The notes: generated by a model from the letters alone, not told the origin. Counted from the stretch's first letter, positions 3,354-59,833 are shown. The stretch is 64,000 bases of DNA from Minisyncoccota bacterium (GCA_041664205.1 JBAYLF010000003.1:7349-71348); one strand, 5' to 3'. Made by a program: numbers and translations.

Positions 3354-4592
3354 TTACTCATATCTAAGAGCCTCTATCGGGCTCTTTTTTGACGCTTGAA
3401 GCGCAGGATATGAACCAAAAATAATTCCAATTCCAACTGAACTTACAAGTCCAATAACAGAAGCGGTTATTGGAATACTATATGCAAGCGAAGTTCCTAA
3501 AAATAAACCGATAAGAAATGTAGCAACAACTGACAATCCAAACCCTATCAAAAGTCCAACTACTCCTCCAAAAAAAGTAAGAATCATAGCTTCAAAAAGA
3601 AACTGCAATAAAATATCATTATCAGTTGCACCAATCGCCTTTCTTAAACCAATCTCTTTCGTTCGTTCAGAAACCGACACAAGCATAATATTCATTATTC
3701 CAATTCCTCCTACAACAAGTGATATAGCGACAACAAAGGTAAGAAAAACTGTGAACATATTTATAATGCTCGAAACCTGTTTTATTAATCCTTGTTGTGT
3801 TTGCACAGAAAAATCATCTTTGGTTGGATCAGTTATTTTATGCATATCTCTAAGTAGAGTTTTTATTTCATAAACAGTGCTATCAACTGTTTCAGGAGAT
3901 GACGCTCTCACAGCTATCTGATTATAATATTTTATTCCCATAAGATATGTTTGGGCTGTGGTGTAAGGAACAAGAACTAACTCATCGACATTAAAAAATA
4001 CAACTTGTCCTCTGGGATCAAAAATACCAATGACTCTAAACTTCTGACGAGAAATCTCAATATTTTTTCCTATTGGATCTTCATTACCAAAAAGTTGTTC
4101 TTTTACTTTTGTTCCTATTATCGCCACCTTAGCATTATCTTTTATATCCGAGTCGTAAAAAATATCTCCTTGAGAAACTTTTAAATCTAAAACATTTACC
4201 ATAAATGAAGCTGTAAATCCTAAGACCATCGGTCGGTAAGTTTGATTTTGATATGACGCACTTTTTCCTGCAACTAAAACTTCTGGCGCCACATCAACAA
4301 TATTTGGAATATTAGAAATTGCATCAAGTTCACGCTTCTTAAGTGAATCGGAAAAAAGTATTGATGCCATATCACTAGGACCTGTTGGTTCCTTTCCTGG
4401 GCGAATAATTATTGTTTCCGCACCAAGTCCACCAAGTTCGCCTACTATTACCTTTGAAGCATTTTCGCCAAGTGCAGAGATCATAACAATCGCTGCAACT
4501 CCAACAACAATACCTAAGATAGTTAAAACTGATCTTGATTTGTGAACCAAGAGTCCCCCGCTTGCTGATTTTATACGGTCTATGATTGTCAT
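3354..4592 (-). CDS. ABC transporter permease, MacB/FtsX-like
   Basis: N-terminal TM, a large periplasmic loop and C-terminal FtsX-type TM helices. It is translationally coupled to the upstream ATPase. Confidence 0.85.
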   Translation of the reverse strand: MTIIDRIKSASGGLLVHKSRSVLTILGIVVGVAAIVMISALGENASKVIVGELGGLGAETIIIRPGKEPTGPSDMASILFSDSLKKRELDAISNIPNIVDVAPEVLVAGKSASYQNQTYRPMVLGFTASFMVNVLDLKVSQGDIFYDSDIKDNAKVAIIGTKVKEQLFGNEDPIGKNIEISRQKFRVIGIFDPRGQVVFFNVDELVLVPYTTAQTYLMGIKYYNQIAVRASSPETVDSTVYEIKTLLRDMHKITDPTKDDFSVQTQQGLIKQVSSIINMFTVFLTFVVAISLVVGGIGIMNIMLVSVSERTKEIGLRKAIGATDNDILLQFLFEAMILTFFGGVVGLLIGFGLSVVATFLIGLFLGTSLAYSIPITASVIGLVSSVGIGIIFGSYPALQASKKSPIEALRYE

Positions 4593-4595
4593 AAT

Positions 4596-5315
4596 TTACT
4601 TAATCGTATGATTTCCACCAGCTAATAATCGCTCACTTACAGGAATAATTTTGTCGCTTGCTATTTCTCCATCTAAAATATTTATAATTCTTTTTGCGTG
4701 TCTTGCCGTGCCAGTTTCGTGCGTAATAAGAATAATAGTATGCTTTTCATTATCATTAAGCTTCTGAAGAATATTTATAATTGATTCGCCAGATTTGGAG
4801 TCAAGATTTCCTGTTGGTTCATCGGCAAAAATAACTTGAGGATTGTTGATAAGAGCTCTCGCTATCGCCACTCTTTGTTTTTCTCCGCCAGATAAGTGCA
4901 TCGTCATCGCGTCTTTTCTGTGAGTAAGTCCTACTTTCTCAATAGTATCAGTAACAATTTTATCCCATTCAGATCTTTTAACATCAGAATAAAAAAGTGG
5001 CAATTTAACATTTTCAAAAACACTCACAGTGGGAAGCAGATTAAACATCTGAAAAACAAAACCGAATTTTTTATTCCTAATTTTAGCAATTTCATAATCG
5101 GAAAATTCATTCACATTTTTACCTTCAAGCTTATAAACGCCACCAGACATCGGATCAAGCAACCCTAGAAGATGAAGCATCGTAGATTTTCCAGAGCCAG
5201 ACGGTCCCATGATCGCAACGAATTCCCCATCTTCTACGTCAAAAGATACGCCACGCAATGCTTTTGTTCCATCATCGTATTCTTTTTTTAAATCTCTTAC
5301 TTCTATTAGAGCCAT
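4596..5315 (-). CDS. ABC transporter ATP-binding protein (MacB/LolD-type)
   Basis: Walker A GPSGSGKST, ABC signature LSGGEKQRVAIARAL and Walker B IIFADEPTGNLD. Confidence 0.9.
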   Translation of the reverse strand: MALIEVRDLKKEYDDGTKALRGVSFDVEDGEFVAIMGPSGSGKSTMLHLLGLLDPMSGGVYKLEGKNVNEFSDYEIAKIRNKKFGFVFQMFNLLPTVSVFENVKLPLFYSDVKRSEWDKIVTDTIEKVGLTHRKDAMTMHLSGGEKQRVAIARALINNPQVIFADEPTGNLDSKSGESIINILQKLNDNEKHTIILITHETGTARHAKRIINILDGEIASDKIIPVSERLLAGGNHTIK

Positions 5316-5341
5316 AACTTTTATTTAATTTTAATTAAGTT

Positions 5342-6901
5342 CTAATTATTCTTTACGAAGATTATAACTTTGTCATTCTCATTAATACCACTTAAAATTT
5401 CTGAATTTCCATCAGTTCCTCTAAGTCCTACCTGAATCTCTTTTTTAACAGATTGCCCGTTCTCCAAAATATTAACGTATTTTATTCCTGACTCATCAAA
5501 AGCAGAGCGGCTTGGAATAATTAAAACATTCTGTTTTTTATTTGTAACAATATTAATATTCGCAGTCATTCCTGATTTTATCCTGTCATCTTTTTGTTTA
5601 AATTGTAAAACAGTTTTGTATGTAGGCACTCCTTCAATGATCTTAGCGTCCGGCTCAACTGAACTTACAACCGCTTCAAACAAAACGCCATCACCATAAG
5701 CATCAAGCGTAACCTCTGCTGACTGTCCAACTTTTATTTTTGCAATATCAGATTCTGGAATATTGGATTCTATTTCAAATTGTGCGCTGGAGTTTATGGA
5801 AATAACAGAAACTTGTGCTGTTGCGATCTCGCCTCTTTTTGCATTTTGTTTTGCCACAACTCCGTCAATCGGAGAATAGATTACATATTTTCCTAATTCA
5901 GCCTTAACGTTATCAAAACTTGCCTGTGCTATATTAACGTTTGCCTGTTGCGCTTTTATATCTTCAGGTGTTGAACCTGCCTTTTTTACTACAAGATTTT
6001 GGTTTGCAACATCAAGCGTAGACTTTGCTGTTTTAAGTTTTTCTGTAGCAGCAGAAAGATTTGATATGGCAGCATTAGTACTTGTTCTAGACGCAGAAAC
6101 ATCTGCTTTGTATGCATCTATAGTCGTTTGCGAAACATTAGAATTTGGAGTCATACTGTTTATAAGATCCGCCACATCATCAAGGTAGTTATTAATGCTT
6201 GAAAGATAAGCTTGAGCGCTTGATGCAGCTATCTCTAAATCAGAATTCAAATTTGTTTTATTAACAAGATCAGAAAAATTATTTAAGGTGCTTTCCATAG
6301 TTACACGTCCATTTTCAACTTTTGATTTTAAATCGGAAAAAGGAGTAATAAAACTAAGTTGAGGATTAGGTCCTCGCGGATTGCTCATAAATTGATCAAC
6401 TTGATTATGAATCGAATCGTCTGATCTTGTGTAAGAATCATTTATTTTATCAAAAAGATTTTGTTTTGAATCATTGTATGAAACTACGGCATTATTAGCC
6501 TGAATTTCAACCAAACGTATTTCCTCCGGTCTAGTTCCAACTTTTAATTCATCTAATTTCGCTTGTTCAGCTTCAAGTTTAGCTTTTGCTTGTTCTATTT
6601 GTGATTCTATATCTGAATTTCCCAAAGAAGCTAAAACTGCCCCAGAATAAACATAGTCTCCAACTGAAACATTAACCTCAGAAATCCTTCCTGACTTTTC
6701 AAATGCTAAATCAACGCTATGCGAAGGCTTTACAGTTCCAGTTGAACTAACTTCTTCAACTACATCTGCTTTTTTAACAGTCTCAGTTTCATATTTTGCT
6801 AAATTCTTCTGATTTAAATAATATTTGTAAGCAAGCGCAGAGAACGCTAAAACTATAACAACTATAGGAATTATAAATTTTATCAATACATCTTTTTTCA
6901 T
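5342..6901 (-). CDS. HlyD/membrane-fusion periplasmic adaptor (MacA-like)
   Basis: N-terminal TM anchor, a long coiled-coil (EQAKAKLEAEQAKLDELK) and a C-terminal beta-barrel region. It is the first gene of the MFP-ATPase-permease operon. Confidence 0.7.
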   Translation of the reverse strand: MKKDVLIKFIIPIVVIVLAFSALAYKYYLNQKNLAKYETETVKKADVVEEVSSTGTVKPSHSVDLAFEKSGRISEVNVSVGDYVYSGAVLASLGNSDIESQIEQAKAKLEAEQAKLDELKVGTRPEEIRLVEIQANNAVVSYNDSKQNLFDKINDSYTRSDDSIHNQVDQFMSNPRGPNPQLSFITPFSDLKSKVENGRVTMESTLNNFSDLVNKTNLNSDLEIAASSAQAYLSSINNYLDDVADLINSMTPNSNVSQTTIDAYKADVSASRTSTNAAISNLSAATEKLKTAKSTLDVANQNLVVKKAGSTPEDIKAQQANVNIAQASFDNVKAELGKYVIYSPIDGVVAKQNAKRGEIATAQVSVISINSSAQFEIESNIPESDIAKIKVGQSAEVTLDAYGDGVLFEAVVSSVEPDAKIIEGVPTYKTVLQFKQKDDRIKSGMTANINIVTNKKQNVLIIPSRSAFDESGIKYVNILENGQSVKKEIQVGLRGTDGNSEILSGINENDKVIIFVKNN

Positions 6902-6906
6902 AAGTT

Positions 6907-7158
6907 TTATTTAATTTTATTTTTTTTAATTATTGTTTTAATTGCATCAAGATGTTCCGACAAATTGGAAGCAAACTGTTCTAATTTTGAAAATTTAGAC
7001 AAAACAATCATATCCGAGTCCATTCCTAAAACAAGAAGTTTATCGCCTTTTTTAAGATCCATATTTTGTCTAGCTTCAATCGGAATTACCGCCTGTCCTT
7101 TCTCACCAATAGTCGTAGTGCCATAAAAATGCTTATTTACATTTATTGGTTTTTTCAT
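6907..7158 (-). CDS. AbrB/MazE/SpoVT-family DNA-binding protein
   Basis: TTIGEKGQAVIPIEARQNMDLKKGDKLLVL matches the swapped-hairpin AbrB fold. It sits at the head of the efflux operon. Confidence 0.6.
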   Translation of the reverse strand: MKKPINVNKHFYGTTTIGEKGQAVIPIEARQNMDLKKGDKLLVLGMDSDMIVLSKFSKLEQFASNLSEHLDAIKTIIKKNKIK

Positions 7159-17254: not shown

Positions 17255-17288
17255 AGAAAAACTCCGCAATATATTGCGGAGTTTTTTA
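17255..17288. terminator. bidirectional rho-independent terminator
   Basis: A-run, CTCCGCAATATATTGCGGAG, then T6. It serves typA on the + strand and the 17310..17747 gene on the - strand. Confidence 0.7.
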
Positions 17289-17309: not shown

Positions 17310-17747
17310 TTATGCTGCCACCGCATAAAGTTTTTTGTGAACTTTTTTTACAGATTTAGCATTTTGAGAATCATTATTAATCCATGATTTGATAATTTTT
17401 AAATAATTTCTTACTCTCTCCTCATCAATTTTTCTATGACATGAATCTAAAGCAATTGAATTCTTTCCACAAATAAAGCGGTTAAAAATCCTAGTATTCC
17501 AAGCGACGTGAGTCTTACCCCAATTTGCTTCTTTTTTTTCAACAAGCTTCCATATTAAAAGAAAAAGCTCTTCAAAGGGGGTTTTAAATTTATCAGTTAT
17601 AACGACCTCCTCCATTCGATCTATAACTTGTCTTGCTTTACCAACATTACCCAAAAATCCATATCCAAGGTGATTGAGTAAATCCATAAATTTTCGATCC
17701 TTTGCAGGAACGTATGGATCTTTTTCCATTTCCCATTTTGTTTTCAT
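17310..17747 (-). CDS. hypothetical protein, paralog 1 of a tandem pair (145 aa)
   Basis: Homologous to 17852..18280 (shared EELFLLI(W/F)KL, LD.C.R and a C-terminal KKLYAVAA tail). Unknown family. Confidence 0.6.
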   Translation of the reverse strand: MKTKWEMEKDPYVPAKDRKFMDLLNHLGYGFLGNVGKARQVIDRMEEVVITDKFKTPFEELFLLIWKLVEKKEANWGKTHVAWNTRIFNRFICGKNSIALDSCHRKIDEERVRNYLKIIKSWINNDSQNAKSVKKVHKKLYAVAA

Positions 17748-17800
17748 ATTTTTTAGAACTGATCGGACTACACATTAACATACAATTTTAAAAAACGCAA
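17743..17800 (-). repeat. copy 1 of identical 56-nt promoter/leader repeat
   Basis: CATATTTTTTAGAACTGATCGGACTACACATTAACATACAATTTTAAAAAACGCAA is identical at 18277..18334. The - strand contains TTGCGT, a 17-nt spacer and TAATGT. Confidence 0.7.
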
Positions 17801-17805
17801 ACAAA

Positions 17806-17835
17806 TAAAAAACTCCGTTTATCGCGGAGTTTTTA
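17806..17835 (-). terminator. rho-independent terminator
   Basis: CTCCGTTTATCGCGGAG hairpin flanked by A/T runs. It is similar in sequence to the terminator at 17255. Confidence 0.6.
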
Positions 17836-17851
17836 TGAGAAAATAACAATA

Positions 17852-18280
17852 TTAAGCTGCTGCTGCATAAAGTTTTTTCCTTTTTGCAGAAGGCTTAACA
17901 GTTTTTTGATTCTCATCTTTTAACCATGCCTTTAGAATTCTGACATAACTTTGTGCTTTCTCTTTTTGAGGTTCTCTGTAACATAGGTCCAGATTAATTC
18001 TTCTATTTCCATAAACAAATACGGAATAAGATTTTATCCAATAAGCACCCTTATTTTGAAGTTTAAATATTAGAAGAAAGAGTTCTTCATGATAATTTTT
18101 AAAATCACCAGAACTAATAATCTCTCTCACCCTGTTAATAAAATCTTTACCTTTCTGATCTCCAGAACTAAGTATAATAGGCCCTATACGATTTAGAATT
18201 ACTAAAATTCGTTTTTCTTCTTGGTGCCTTGCCTCACTTTCTGGATTTTTATATTTCAATTTTTTCTGTTTCGTTTCCAT
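17852..18280 (-). CDS. hypothetical protein, paralog 2 of a tandem pair (142 aa)
   Basis: See 17310..17747. C-terminal tail is KKLYAAAA. Confidence 0.6.
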   Translation of the reverse strand: METKQKKLKYKNPESEARHQEEKRILVILNRIGPIILSSGDQKGKDFINRVREIISSGDFKNYHEELFLLIFKLQNKGAYWIKSYSVFVYGNRRINLDLCYREPQKEKAQSYVRILKAWLKDENQKTVKPSAKRKKLYAAAA

Positions 18281-18334
18281 ATTTTTTAGAACTGATCGGA
18301 CTACACATTAACATACAATTTTAAAAAACGCAAG
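18277..18334 (-). repeat. copy 2 of identical 56-nt promoter/leader repeat
   Basis: Identical to 17743..17800. Confidence 0.7.
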
Positions 18335-18345
18335 TATACGAAAAT

Positions 18346-18372
18346 ACCCATCACGTTAAACGTGATGGGTAT
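18346..18372 (-). terminator. terminator hairpin
   Basis: ACCCATCACG-ttaaa-CGTGATGGGT with weak flanking U tracts, downstream of the RRM gene. Confidence 0.45.
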
Positions 18373-18393
18373 TTTCTAAAGCACTAAAATTAA

Positions 18394-18970: not shown

Positions 18971-19318
18971 ATGAAAAATTCATTTGAAGAAACAGTCCTA
19001 CCAAATAACGAATTAGAAAATACTTCCGACGTAGAAAAAAATAATAAAATTTGGGAAGAAATAAAAAGAAAAAATTTCAGTCGAGTAGATGAATTAACTC
19101 TTATTAGTGATGAAATAATTGAAATCTTACTAAAACAACCTAAAGAAAACGGAATTTTTTTAAGTAATCTCAAATCTATTACTGATCGCCAAGCAGAACG
19201 TTTATCAAAATACGAAGGTAGTGTCTATCTTGAAAATCTTGATGTTACAGATCAACAAGCAGAATTTTTATCGAAACCTAACATTACATGGTCTTACAAA
19301 TACCATGATTCAATCTAA
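18971..19318 (+). CDS. hypothetical protein (115 aa)
   Basis: Protein-like composition. The overlapping - strand ORF 18940..19173 has antisense-like F/S/L-rich composition. Confidence 0.4.
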   Translation: MKNSFEETVLPNNELENTSDVEKNNKIWEEIKRKNFSRVDELTLISDEIIEILLKQPKENGIFLSNLKSITDRQAERLSKYEGSVYLENLDVTDQQAEFLSKPNITWSYKYHDSI

Positions 19319-22838: not shown

Positions 22839-23126
22839 TTAAGGATCAAGAAACTGTCTATCATGCCTGTTATTTGGATCAAGATATCTATCTTCTCTAT
22901 GACAGTGTGTGGGGAATGCAGAGTCATGAAAAAATTCATTAAAGCTAGCTATCATTTCTTCTGTTTTGTGTCTATCAGCAATAGCGCAATCTTCACAAAA
23001 ATCACCACCTTGAGCAAACGGATATCCGCAAACTTTACAACTAAGTTCTCTAGCCCCTTCATTTTCTTTGTTGTTTTCAATTCCGTGTGGATATAAAAGA
23101 ATCGCAAATTTTTTATTTTGACTCAT
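22839..23126 (-). CDS. small CxxC..CxxC zinc-ribbon protein, paralog B (95 aa)
   Basis: KKFAILLYPHGIENNKENEGARELSCKVCGYPFAQGGDFCEDC is about 60% identical to the N-terminal half of 23608..23844. It has its own copy of the conserved leader. Confidence 0.55.
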   Translation of the reverse strand: MSQNKKFAILLYPHGIENNKENEGARELSCKVCGYPFAQGGDFCEDCAIADRHKTEEMIASFNEFFHDSAFPTHCHREDRYLDPNNRHDRQFLDP

Positions 23127-23195
23127 AATTTTCTTTCAGTTTTCTAAAACAAACAATACTCTTTTAAATTAATAAAATCAAACTTTTGCAAAAGA

Positions 23196-23246: not shown

Positions 23247-23573
23247 TCAGTTTCTGTTTTTGACTTCTTCTGGGATGAAGTCACCGATCGTCGCTAAAGG
23301 AATTTCTCCGGCATCGTGTTGACGAAATAGTTCTTCAAATAATTCATCGACACCAGCATCAAATTCAGCCTGTTCTTGTAAGCTTGGAACTTCCTCTTTG
23401 CCGAGGAAATCCTGACACTCCTGTTGAGTATCAGCAACAAAAACAGTAACTTGAGTTGTGTTACAGACAACTGCATAACCTCCACCACAACAAGGAACGA
23501 TCATACAAGCATCCTTATCCCAAAAAGGTTTAGCCCAATCAGGACAAACGAAACCGCGTTCTGAAGTTTTCAT
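23247..23573 (-). CDS. Cys-rich small protein with acidic C-terminal tail (108 aa)
   Basis: FVCPDWAKPFWDKDACMIVPCCGGGYAVVCN has 6 Cys in 31 aa, followed by a D/E-rich tail. Codon usage is GC-richer. It is co-oriented 34 nt downstream of paralog A and ends with TGA. Confidence 0.55.
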   Translation of the reverse strand: MKTSERGFVCPDWAKPFWDKDACMIVPCCGGGYAVVCNTTQVTVFVADTQQECQDFLGKEEVPSLQEQAEFDAGVDELFEELFRQHDAGEIPLATIGDFIPEEVKNRN

Positions 23574-23607: not shown

Positions 23608-23844
23608 TCAAGGAAAAAGACCTTGTATAGGGAGCGTAACTCCGTAAATAAAAGCATCGGAATCGCCAATATTTTCTCTAATTTTTACCCCACTTAAGTT
23701 AATACAGCAATCGCAACGCTCTCCACCTTGTGCAAACGGATATCCGCAAACCTTACAGCAGATATCTCTGATTCTGTCATTTTCTTGTTTATTTTCAGTT
23801 CTGGATGGATATAAAAGAATAGCAAAATTTTTAGTTCGACTCAT
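23608..23844 (-). CDS. small CxxC..CxxC zinc-ribbon protein, paralog A (78 aa from the MSRTK start)
   Basis: MSRTKNFAILLYPSRTENKQENDRIRDICCKVCGYPFAQGGERCDCC. The start was chosen at the ATG preceded by the conserved leader; the ORF track extends to 23910. Confidence 0.55.
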   Translation of the reverse strand: MSRTKNFAILLYPSRTENKQENDRIRDICCKVCGYPFAQGGERCDCCINLSGVKIRENIGDSDAFIYGVTLPIQGLFP

Positions 23845-23917
23845 ATTTAATTTCAGTTTTCTAACAAAAACAATACTCTTAAAAATTAATAAGAGCAAAT
23901 GAATCAGCACTTTTATA

Positions 23918-39660: not shown

Positions 39661-39999
39661 TTATGCAGCTACTTCTGGTGTTGGTGTTGCTGGTTTTGCA
39701 ACTTCGGCTGGCTTCTCTTTTAAGATAGGTTTCTTCTTAGGTAAAACATTAACTTTCTTTCCTTCTATAATCTTTTTAGAGATTAATAGGTTGTGCATTG
39801 TTCCTGTAAGCTTTGCGCCTTTTGACATCCAGTATTTTACTCTATCTGTCTTGATATCACTCTCATGCTTTCTTGGATCATGAGATCCTAACACTTCAAT
39901 ATATTTTCCGCTTTTAGTGCTGTTCTGGGAATCAGTTAAAACTACCCGGTATACAGGTATATTTTTTCGTCCCACTCGTTGTAATCTAATTTTTAACAT
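39661..39999 (-). CDS. rpsP: 30S ribosomal protein S16 with K/P/A-rich C-terminal extension
   Basis: MLKIRLQRVGRKNIPVYRVVLTDS...YIEVLGSHDP is canonical S16, plus a roughly 30-aa basic tail. Confidence 0.9.
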   Translation of the reverse strand: MLKIRLQRVGRKNIPVYRVVLTDSQNSTKSGKYIEVLGSHDPRKHESDIKTDRVKYWMSKGAKLTGTMHNLLISKKIIEGKKVNVLPKKKPILKEKPAEVAKPATPTPEVAA

Positions 40000-58207: not shown

Positions 58208-59833
58208 TTATTCTCTGTTCTCTTTATTATAAGAGATCTTTTCCCAAACTGAGTTGAATATAGGTGTAGCATTTTTTGTAGGAACTTCACCAATATTTGT
58301 AGCGAGTGTATTTTTACCTACTTTCTTTCGATAAATTACATAAGCTATAATTGCGCTCCATAAAGCCAACATTGCCATAAACAATCCTGTCTTTATATTA
58401 TCTTCCAATCCTGTATAAGGAACTTGGCTTAATGAAACGAATTGGGATGAAGATGGTTGCTGATACAATACAGTGCTTTGATTAGTATTGATGTTTGTAT
58501 AGCATGTTCTAGTAATTGATTGATTTCCGGAAGTTATAACTAGAGTTGCAGTTTTAGTTCCGTAGGTTGGATAACTTTTAGTTATTGATGAACCACTGCC
58601 AGATAAGTTGTCAGTTCCATACCAGTAGTAACTATAGTTTCCAGCTCCACCATATGCTGCTGCGTTCCAAGTTACATTTTCATTAATATTTGGATTTGAA
58701 TTTGATGCAGAGCATGAACCGTTTAAAGTTTGATCAGTGTAATACTGTTGCTGAACATAAACTGAACATGTTCTTGTAACAGTTTGATTTCCATCGCTGA
58801 TAGTTAAAGTAGCATTCTTTGTTCCATATGTTCCATATTGTTTACTTAATGAAGATCCATATCCATAAAGACTATCGTCACCACTCCAGTAATAAGTATA
58901 GTTGCCTGTGCCTCCAGAAGCAGAACCATTCCAAACAACAGTATTGCCAACATTTACTGTAAATGGATTTGCATAACAACTTGCTTGAAGCAATGATGGT
59001 AATGGTGTTGGTGCAGGGTTTACATAATTTGGAGTATTAAATGCAAGAACAATGCTTGCGTTAGAATTATTATTGTTAGTGTTTGTTGGATTGTTTGCTA
59101 CAACAACATTATTATTATTTGTAGCAACGGCTGTTGTATTACCTCCTGTAGTTCTATTTGTTACAACATTGCTTCCACCGTTAGAATTTCTAGAGTTTGA
59201 ATAGTTAGATAAGAAAGGAAGACTTATAGAACCTGTTGAATAATAAGGTTGGGAGTAAGAAGAGCTACAAGAACTACAATACTGATCGTTAAAGTCATCG
59301 TAATAAGAATCAAAATCGTAAGAATATCCAGAACCATAGGAATCATAGCCGTAATCGCTATAGTCTGTATATCCATAATCGCTGTAATCAGTATAACCAG
59401 TGTAATCTCCATAGTCGCTGTAATCTGTGTAACCATACTGACTGTTTAGATTGTCATAGTAAGAACTAAGATCGTCTGAATAATTACTATAATCTGTGTA
59501 GACAGAATTATCATAATTACTGTAATCGGTATAACCGCTGTAGTCACTATAGTCTGTGTATCCGCCATAGTCGCTATAATCTGTATAACCTCCGTAGTCG
59601 CTATAGTCAGAATATCCACTGTAGTCACTGTAATCTGTGTAACTACCATAATCACTGTAATCAGAATAGCCACCATAATCGCTATAATCTGTATAACCTC
59701 CGTAGTAGCTGTAATCGTAATACTCTTGAGCGTTTACTGTATTAGATGACGCCGCAAAAATAATTACTAACCCCAGCACAAAAACGGTTTTTAAAAACTC
59801 ATTATTAAAATTTTTCTTAAATATTTTATTCAT
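58208..59833 (-). CDS. secreted Tyr/Asp/Ser-rich repeat protein with two PKD-like domains and a C-terminal anchor
   Basis: Signal peptide, then about 160 aa of GYTDYSDYG-type 9-aa repeats, an N/T-rich linker, two PKD-like modules (NxTVxWNxSASGGxGNYxYYWxGxD...GTKxATLxIxxGNQxxTRTC), and VPYTG followed by a TM helix and an RKK tail. Confidence 0.7.
   Translation of the reverse strand: MNKIFKKNFNNEFLKTVFVLGLVIIFAASSNTVNAQEYYDYSYYGGYTDYSDYGGYSDYSDYGSYTDYSDYSGYSDYSDYGGYTDYSDYGGYTDYSDYSGYTDYSNYDNSVYTDYSNYSDDLSSYYDNLNSQYGYTDYSDYGDYTGYTDYSDYGYTDYSDYGYDSYGSGYSYDFDSYYDDFNDQYCSSCSSSYSQPYYSTGSISLPFLSNYSNSRNSNGGSNVVTNRTTGGNTTAVATNNNNVVVANNPTNTNNNNSNASIVLAFNTPNYVNPAPTPLPSLLQASCYANPFTVNVGNTVVWNGSASGGTGNYTYYWSGDDSLYGYGSSLSKQYGTYGTKNATLTISDGNQTVTRTCSVYVQQQYYTDQTLNGSCSASNSNPNINENVTWNAAAYGGAGNYSYYWYGTDNLSGSGSSITKSYPTYGTKTATLVITSGNQSITRTCYTNINTNQSTVLYQQPSSSQFVSLSQVPYTGLEDNIKTGLFMAMLALWSAIIAYVIYRKKVGKNTLATNIGEVPTKNATPIFNSVWEKISYNKENRE
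59250..59730 (-). repeat. in-frame tandem repeat array, 27-bp unit, about 15 copies (encodes the YTDYSDYGG repeats)
   Basis: Units such as GTATCCAGAACCATAGGAATCATAGCC and GTAATCGCTATAGTCTGTATATCCATAATC recur on the + strand. The many short I/T/V-rich ORFs at 59224..59676 are repeat artefacts. Confidence 0.7.

Follow-up and report, generated by a model that had tools for sequence, protein, structure and literature searches.

Two small minus-strand genes of a Candidatus Paceibacterota genome, here called A and B, are deeply diverged tandem paralogs preceded by the same 56 nucleotides, which extend from a putative −35 hexamer to the start codon and are identical base for base. The genes lie side by side in the window (the whole stretch of 64,000 nucleotides that was analysed), which itself belongs to a contig of 300,645 bp in a Candidatus Paceibacterota MAG (ENA ERZ27249449 k141_323699). 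We assign a probability of about one half to the reading that the whole unit was duplicated in tandem long ago, that short-tract gene conversion, helped by selection, is the main reason why its promoter and leader have stayed identical, and that the C-terminal tail common to the two proteins acts as a signal at the protein level, most plausibly a C-degron. What we infer from these data are the promoter assignment, gene conversion, joint expression and the degron; with one genome and two copies, conversion and extreme purifying selection look alike. The pair is a clean natural example of an identical regulatory region in front of coding sequences that have diverged almost to saturation.

Two complete transcription units in tandem

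Between 18340 and 17257 the minus strand carries two small transcription units, each complete and one behind the other (Table 1). Each unit measures ~535–550 bp, and the spacing of the two is 533–548 nt. BLASTP aligns the two proteins with 33% identity and 57% positives (E = 4e-22), and a MAFFT alignment gives 34% identity. Genes A and B are thus true tandem paralogs that have diverged deeply, as the initial annotation had proposed, although the protein identity is below the 35–40% given there. Synonymous sites are near saturation by the Nei–Gojobori method (pS 0.61, dS ~1.26), and the duplication of the unit is therefore old. At nonsynonymous sites the corresponding values are pN 0.41 and dN ~0.60; with dN smaller than dS, the coding regions of both genes are under some purifying selection.

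Nucleotide identity is ~40–55% over most of the coding body, with local peaks at the EELFLLI(W/F)KL motif (77%), over the last eight codons (~80%) and in the terminator stems. A recent segmental duplication spilling into the flanking DNA, which had been put forward beforehand as another possible source of the shared leader, is ruled out by the sharp drop in identity at the edges of the 56-nt block together with the near-saturated dS.

The intrinsic terminators of the two genes are homologous, with stems of the form CTCCG(C)...(G)CGGAG, so that the related terminators reported to follow both genes are indeed present at 17808–17834 and 17257–17286. The second of these hairpins (−23.2 kcal/mol, z −4.1) is palindromic with A and T runs on either side and hence terminates typA too. 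At the other end, the terminator of the RRM gene (18340–18376) marks the upstream boundary of the duplicated array.

Table 1 Features of the tandem gene pair, with positions counted from the first letter of the window.
Feature	Position	Strand	Description	Remarks
Terminator of the upstream RRM RNA-binding-protein gene	18340..18376		18+18 nt palindrome, arms 100% complementary, 1-nt loop	
56-nt block, copy 1	18278..18333	−	Putative promoter, leader and ATG of gene A	Putative −35 TTGCGT at 18328–18333; putative TG-extended −10 TAATGT at 18305–18310
Gene A	17852..18280	−	142 aa, pI 9.9, orphan protein	NCBI MFA6338781.1, WCW87_01860
Tail codons KKLYAAAA, gene A	17855..17878	−		pLDDT <50 for the last residues
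Intrinsic terminator of gene A, AAAAACTCCGCGATAAACGGAGTTTTT	17808..17834	−	Stem CTCCG...CGGAG and T run	A few bases upstream of block copy 2
56-nt block, copy 2	17745..17800	−	Same putative promoter, leader and ATG, of gene B	Putative −35 at 17795–17800; putative −10 at 17772–17777
Gene B	17310..17747	−	145 aa, pI 9.7, orphan protein	NCBI MFA6338780.1, WCW87_01855
Tail codons KKLYAVAA, gene B	17313..17336	−		pLDDT <50 over residues 128–145
Terminator of gene B and of convergent typA (+, ends 17253), AAAAACTCCGCAATATATTGCGGAGTTTTT	17257..17286		Perfect palindrome, flanking A and T runs	

An identical 56-nt block ends at both start codons

The block TTGCGTTTTTTAAAATTGTATGTTAATGTGTAGTCCGATCAGTTCTAAAAAATATG is the same at all 56 positions in both copies and ends with each ATG, in full agreement with the earlier claim of 100% identity outward from the start codon. 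It occurs exactly twice in the 64-kb window, where it is the longest exact repeat, and the copies are 533 bp apart. Allowing up to three mismatches, we found no third copy in the window, and 0 of 100 shuffles gave a match. The block also pins down the start codons of both genes.

Identity ends abruptly on both sides of the block, falling from 100% to ~50%. Of the 12 T-rich bases immediately upstream, 7 match, and identity is ~63% in the next 30 nt. The upstream edge is also where the duplicated unit ends, the terminators beyond it being different, and so needs no special explanation; the informative edge is the downstream one, just past the ATG. For unconstrained sites at this divergence, the chance of a 56/56 match is ~1e-23. 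Because coding dS is near saturation at ~1.26, the identity of the block is not residual similarity from the duplication, and it needs either gene conversion or very strong constraint.

In front of gene A the block begins 6 nt past the palindromic terminator of the RRM gene, and in front of gene B it begins where the T tail of the gene A terminator ends. It therefore fills nearly the whole gap between terminator and ATG and should hold both a promoter and a 5′ untranslated region. On the basis of this position, we read it as a putative promoter of the form TTGCGT-17-TAATGT with an upstream TGn, followed by a short leader. The hexamers were read by eye and lie below the threshold of the promoter scan; with a 17-nt spacer, they match the consensus TTGACA/TATAAT at 3/6 and 3/6 positions (6/12). 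The distance from TAATGT to ATG is ~24 nt, leaving a leader of ~17–20 nt without a Shine–Dalgarno sequence. Several other genes of the window have near-consensus TTGACx-17-TAxAAT promoters and equally short, A-rich leaders that likewise lack a Shine–Dalgarno sequence. At most, the 56-mer would thus be a promoter of an atypical kind, and transcripts may also read through from the RRM gene.

The leader RNA is unstructured, folding no better than shuffled sequences (z +0.9 and +1.4 for the two copies), and no Rfam family reached its gathering score in the leader, where the sub-threshold matches were terminator hairpins only. Promoters are poorly characterised in ultra-small CPR genomes, and the shared block is a candidate non-consensus promoter of the Paceibacterota.

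The C-terminal tail is conserved at the protein level

The two proteins end KKLYAAAA (A) and KKLYAVAA (B), seven of these eight residues being identical, compared with 33% identity protein-wide. The last eight codons with nearby bases are 79% identical over 38 nt, as expected from the earlier remark that the nucleotides are similar there as well. Within the tails, the codons AAA AAA CTT TAT are the same in A and B, whereas the Ala/Val codons differ (GCG GTG GCA GCA versus GCA GCA GCA GCT). Since this AT-rich genome prefers the shared codons and the Ala/Val codons differ, conservation of the tail is explained at the protein level and needs no gene conversion at the 3′ end. The proposal that both conserved ends reflect purifying selection or gene conversion consequently holds for the 5′ block; for the 3′ end, DNA-level homogenisation falls away.

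The last residues of both tails are small and non-polar and end in -AA-COOH (...LYAVAA and ...LYAAAA). In models built from a two-sequence alignment, the segments with pLDDT below 50 comprise residues 128–145 of B and 137–142 of A. By analogy, the KKLYA(A/V)AA tail would most plausibly be a C-terminal recognition signal of the ssrA or alanine-tail type for an AAA+ protease. C-terminal alanine tails added by RqcH and ssrA tails are established ClpXP degrons (PMC8373112; PMC8138137; Lytvynenko 2019 cited there), and clpP is present in at least one CPR bacterium, TM7x (bioRxiv 10.1101/2022.03.25.485537). Among 160 related loci there is one tmRNA (L077, 1359–1755, plus strand; Rfam 142.7 bits; Patescibacteria contig JBAZKA010000001.1), and its predicted tag, ANLFSKVKTSIARAFSPAMSFAPVAA, ends ...FAPVAA.

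The tails of A and B resemble ssrA and RqcH-made alanine tails in ending ...A(A/V)AA-COOH, in being non-polar and in lying on a segment modelled as flexible. Unlike those tails, which are added co-translationally, they are encoded in the genome, and the signal here is putative, ribosomal protein S16 of the same window having a similar end. This protein (39661–39999, minus strand) carries a Lys/Pro/Ala-rich C-terminal extension ending ...PATPTPEVAA, so that here instability does not follow from an [AV]AA terminus alone. ORFs ending in [AVL]AA number 3 of 53 in the window, two of the three being A and B, versus 1 of 1,659 in the related loci, an excess that is suggestive. None of the 26 window ORFs scanned with Pfam encodes a ClpXP, ClpAP, Lon or FtsH protease. 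Scanning the window and related loci for motifs of ClpX, ClpP, Lon and FtsH returned only GPTGSGKT matches, which on reading the sequences appear to be PilB/GspE-type ATPases, and is uninformative on the degron. If the tails of A and B are true degrons, they would represent a genome-encoded use of the tmRNA and alanine-tail signal.

Predicted structure of the two proteins

AlphaFold2, run on the two-sequence alignment, gave concordant models of the two proteins with pLDDT values of 71 and 69 and pTM values of 0.67 and 0.61. In both, the modelled topology is helix-helix-helix-strand-strand-strand-long helix, followed by a low-confidence basic tail that is modelled as disordered. Foldseek searches of PDB and BFVD returned nothing better than E 0.13 or TM 0.38, and a profile search of PDB with A and B gave no match. 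The scattered Foldseek matches to dsRBD and winged-helix folds are within noise, and hhalign gave a probability of 0.2% for kinship with the RNase III/dsRBD protein encoded in the window itself. From the pI of 9.7–9.9 alone, a nucleic-acid-binding role may be guessed at. The N-termini are hydrophilic, and neither protein has a signal peptide, a lipobox, or a hydrophobic or membrane segment.

An orphan family inserted between housekeeping genes

The protein family is new, but it is an orphan restricted to one MAG. It has exactly two members among ~15 billion public proteins, both from a single uncultured Paceibacterota genome: no further homologs emerged when 1.84 billion representatives were searched exhaustively with an HMM and 5.8 billion clusters by two word-indexed searches. 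Pfam, NCBIfam, PHROGs and PADLOC gave nothing significant for either protein (the best match, Ish1, has an E value of 0.055, below the cutoff), and there was no match in phages by tblastn or in viral contigs by alignment scan. A profile search of the six-frame ORFs of the window revealed no third paralog, and tblastn and hmmsearch detected no faint homologs downstream of typA in the 160 related loci. Orphan proteins confined to one genome are common in CPR genomes.

Counting family members by the leader, as had been suggested, likewise gives two copies only in the sequence covered: the 25-nt core of the leader has no extra copy in the contig flanks, ~79 kb of contig being covered, and 0 matches in genome, metagenome and viral contig collections. 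The closest TypA in either large collection is only 77% identical, which means that those collections hold no close relative of this organism; an exact-protein look-up of TypA for a strain variant returned the same contig only.

The neighbours of the pair are typA, the RRM RNA-binding-protein gene, truB and hisS, all housekeeping genes. No toxin, secretion, recombinase or phage genes lie near the pair, and there are no PADLOC or PHROG matches. In the nearest relatives (L129, L003, L076 and L005), typA and the RRM gene are convergent and separated by 57–114 nt with one hairpin, indicating that the ~1.1-kb pair is a lineage-specific insertion. Other relatives (L021, L030, L096, L142, L158, L127, L107 and L109) carry unrelated inserts of 0.4–2.4 kb in the same gap, among them small orphan ORFs, a membrane protein and an oxidoreductase, which identifies the gap between typA and the RRM gene as a hotspot for variable content. 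Between the RRM gene and truB, the window holds a 115-aa ORF (18971–19318, plus strand), for which Pfam, PHROG and PADLOC give no match, nor does tblastn against the first 80 related loci; apparently this is another lineage-specific insertion beside the pair.

Origin and upkeep of the identical block

In the reading to which we give a probability of about one half, a unit made up of a promoter, a leader, a gene of ~143 codons and an intrinsic terminator would, in this Paceibacterota lineage, have been inserted into the gap that separates typA from the RRM gene and then, long ago, duplicated in tandem. The coding regions would have drifted to 33% amino-acid identity with one fold retained, while the 56-nt block would have stayed, or been remade, identical through short-tract non-reciprocal recombination, aided by selection on the promoter. 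For RecA-dependent exchange, an identity tract of 56 bp is close to the minimum length. The two genes would be given identical signals for transcription and translation initiation, probably resulting in joint expression at matched levels, and such matching could answer the need of a pair that acts jointly, hypothetically as a heteromer. The KKLYA(A/V)AA tail would be kept by selection on the proteins, and a protease signal would make both of them short-lived.

Purifying selection by itself, with every base of the 56-mer constrained and no recombination involved, is a less probable account but one that we take seriously. It would require the block to combine an atypical promoter, an operator to which a regulator of its own would bind (perhaps the A and B proteins themselves) and a translation-initiation region, and several features are in keeping with this: the −35 hexamer and the ATG are exactly where the block begins and ends, the −10 region is bracketed by an imperfect inverted repeat (CAATTTTAAAAAA / TTTTTTAGAACTG), the non-consensus hexamers suggest dependence on an activator, and both proteins are basic. 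However, shuffled sequences fold as well as the AT-rich inverted repeat (z −0.87), neither A nor B showed a DNA-binding fold, known promoters and operators tolerate changes in spacer and leader, and zero changes at 56 positions against a dS of ~1.3 would be exceptional. Unlikely, in our estimation, is a recent replacement in which one gene took over the promoter and leader of the other in a single illegitimate or microhomology-mediated event. Such an event would fit the sharp identity edges, the T-rich microhomology upstream and the ATG-(A/G)AAAC-(A/G)-AAA similarity downstream; yet the terminators and the unit spacing (533–548 nt) are homologous too, as if the promoter had belonged to the original duplicated unit, and the outcome would be the same as that of a single conversion event.

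The initial annotation had likened the pair to paired or variable cassette genes of an immunity/effector-like or antigenic family, in which conserved ends would serve as recombination handles for swapping bodies between strains. Conserved 5′ and 3′ ends around a diverged middle do recall the Borrelia ospE/ospF genes, and the gap between typA and the RRM gene does hold different inserts in different relatives, but these inserts encode unrelated proteins. With two members only among ~15 billion proteins, no more copies of the leader in the window, the contig flanks or the genome, metagenome and viral collections, neither signal peptide nor lipobox, and no nearby toxin, secretion, recombinase or phage genes, the proposal founders on family size, export signals and housekeeping context, and we regard it as very improbable. 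The chance that the repeat is an assembly artefact, or that the ORFs are non-coding, is close to negligible. Although the sequence comes from a single short-read MAG, the 56-nt repeat is shorter than the assembler k of 141, which makes collapse impossible, and in run SRR6484324, the only other sample, an independent assembly with k=31 branches precisely where the repeat lies: its contig (L163, Logan SRR6484324_65040, ending at 4435) matches the window base for base across the RRM gene and its terminator and stops 30 nt inside the first copy of the repeat. A de Bruijn graph breaks at a true repeat longer than k, and the position of this contig end therefore indicates a true repeat, not a MEGAHIT artefact. 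Coding potential is attested by two ORFs of more than 140 codons in DNA of 31% GC, by their mutual similarity, by dN < dS and by concordant folds.

The closest parallel to a conserved promoter region in front of diverged paralogs is found in the ospE/ospF/elp (Erp) genes of Borrelia burgdorferi, whose ‘upstream homology box’ members (Marconi et al. 1996, J Bacteriol 178:5615, listed in PMC6719511) are reported to be diverged paralogs that share a highly conserved promoter and 5′ region and are co-regulated. The Erp family has many members on multiple plasmids, encoding surface lipoproteins that have conserved signal peptides and are tied to interaction with the host; genes A and B, by contrast, lie on the chromosome as the two sole members of their family, lack a signal peptide and belong to no such multi-copy group of surface proteins.

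Maintenance by short-tract conversion, the mechanism we favour, resembles the concerted evolution of tandem bacterial paralogs by ectopic gene conversion, where selection maintains islands of divergence, in that nearby direct repeats share one sharply bounded identical tract with the rest diverged. It differs in that the homogenised tract is only a non-coding promoter and leader of 56 bp and the coding bodies are almost saturated. In ultra-small CPR genomes, the pair could serve studies of promoter constraint and of gene conversion over short tracts; as the family is confined to one genome, the wider significance is limited. A further and decidedly speculative extension, which we consider rather improbable, is that A and B would be two subunits of a heteromeric nucleic-acid-binding factor, held at equal dosage by an actively homogenised promoter and leader and made unstable through an alanine-tail degron that mimics the tmRNA tag of the organism. 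Were this so, the pair would provide a new orphan fold and a non-operon way of enforcing stoichiometry in a reduced CPR genome.

Other repeats in the window

The window contains a second lineage-specific pair of small paralogs, at 22839–23126 and 23608–23910, both on the minus strand. They have in common a zinc-ribbon-like motif, ...KNFAILLYP...CKVCGYPFAQGG..C..C. The repeats extend over 22993–23182 and 23711–23899, with 78% identity in the DNA that codes for the N-termini and 85% in the 55 nt upstream of it. Between the two members lies an unrelated ORF of 108 aa (23247–23573), and a Pfam scan of the 100-aa and 108-aa ORFs of this region gave no match.

Repeats of another kind occur at 59375–59750, where at least 14 imperfect copies of tandem 9/27-nt repeats lie within an ORF on the minus strand (58208–59833). 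This ORF encodes a 541-aa PKD-domain protein, adjoins a sortase gene and looks like a repetitive surface protein.

A shorter likeness around start codons links two adjacent minus-strand genes, at 4596–5315 (ABC ATPase) and 5342–6901. The 24 nt at 5313–5336 and 6899–6922, which include the start codons, are 92% identical (AATTAAAATTAAATAAAAGTTATG-like), and this may reflect a preferred A/T-rich context for translation initiation or chance in AT-rich DNA.
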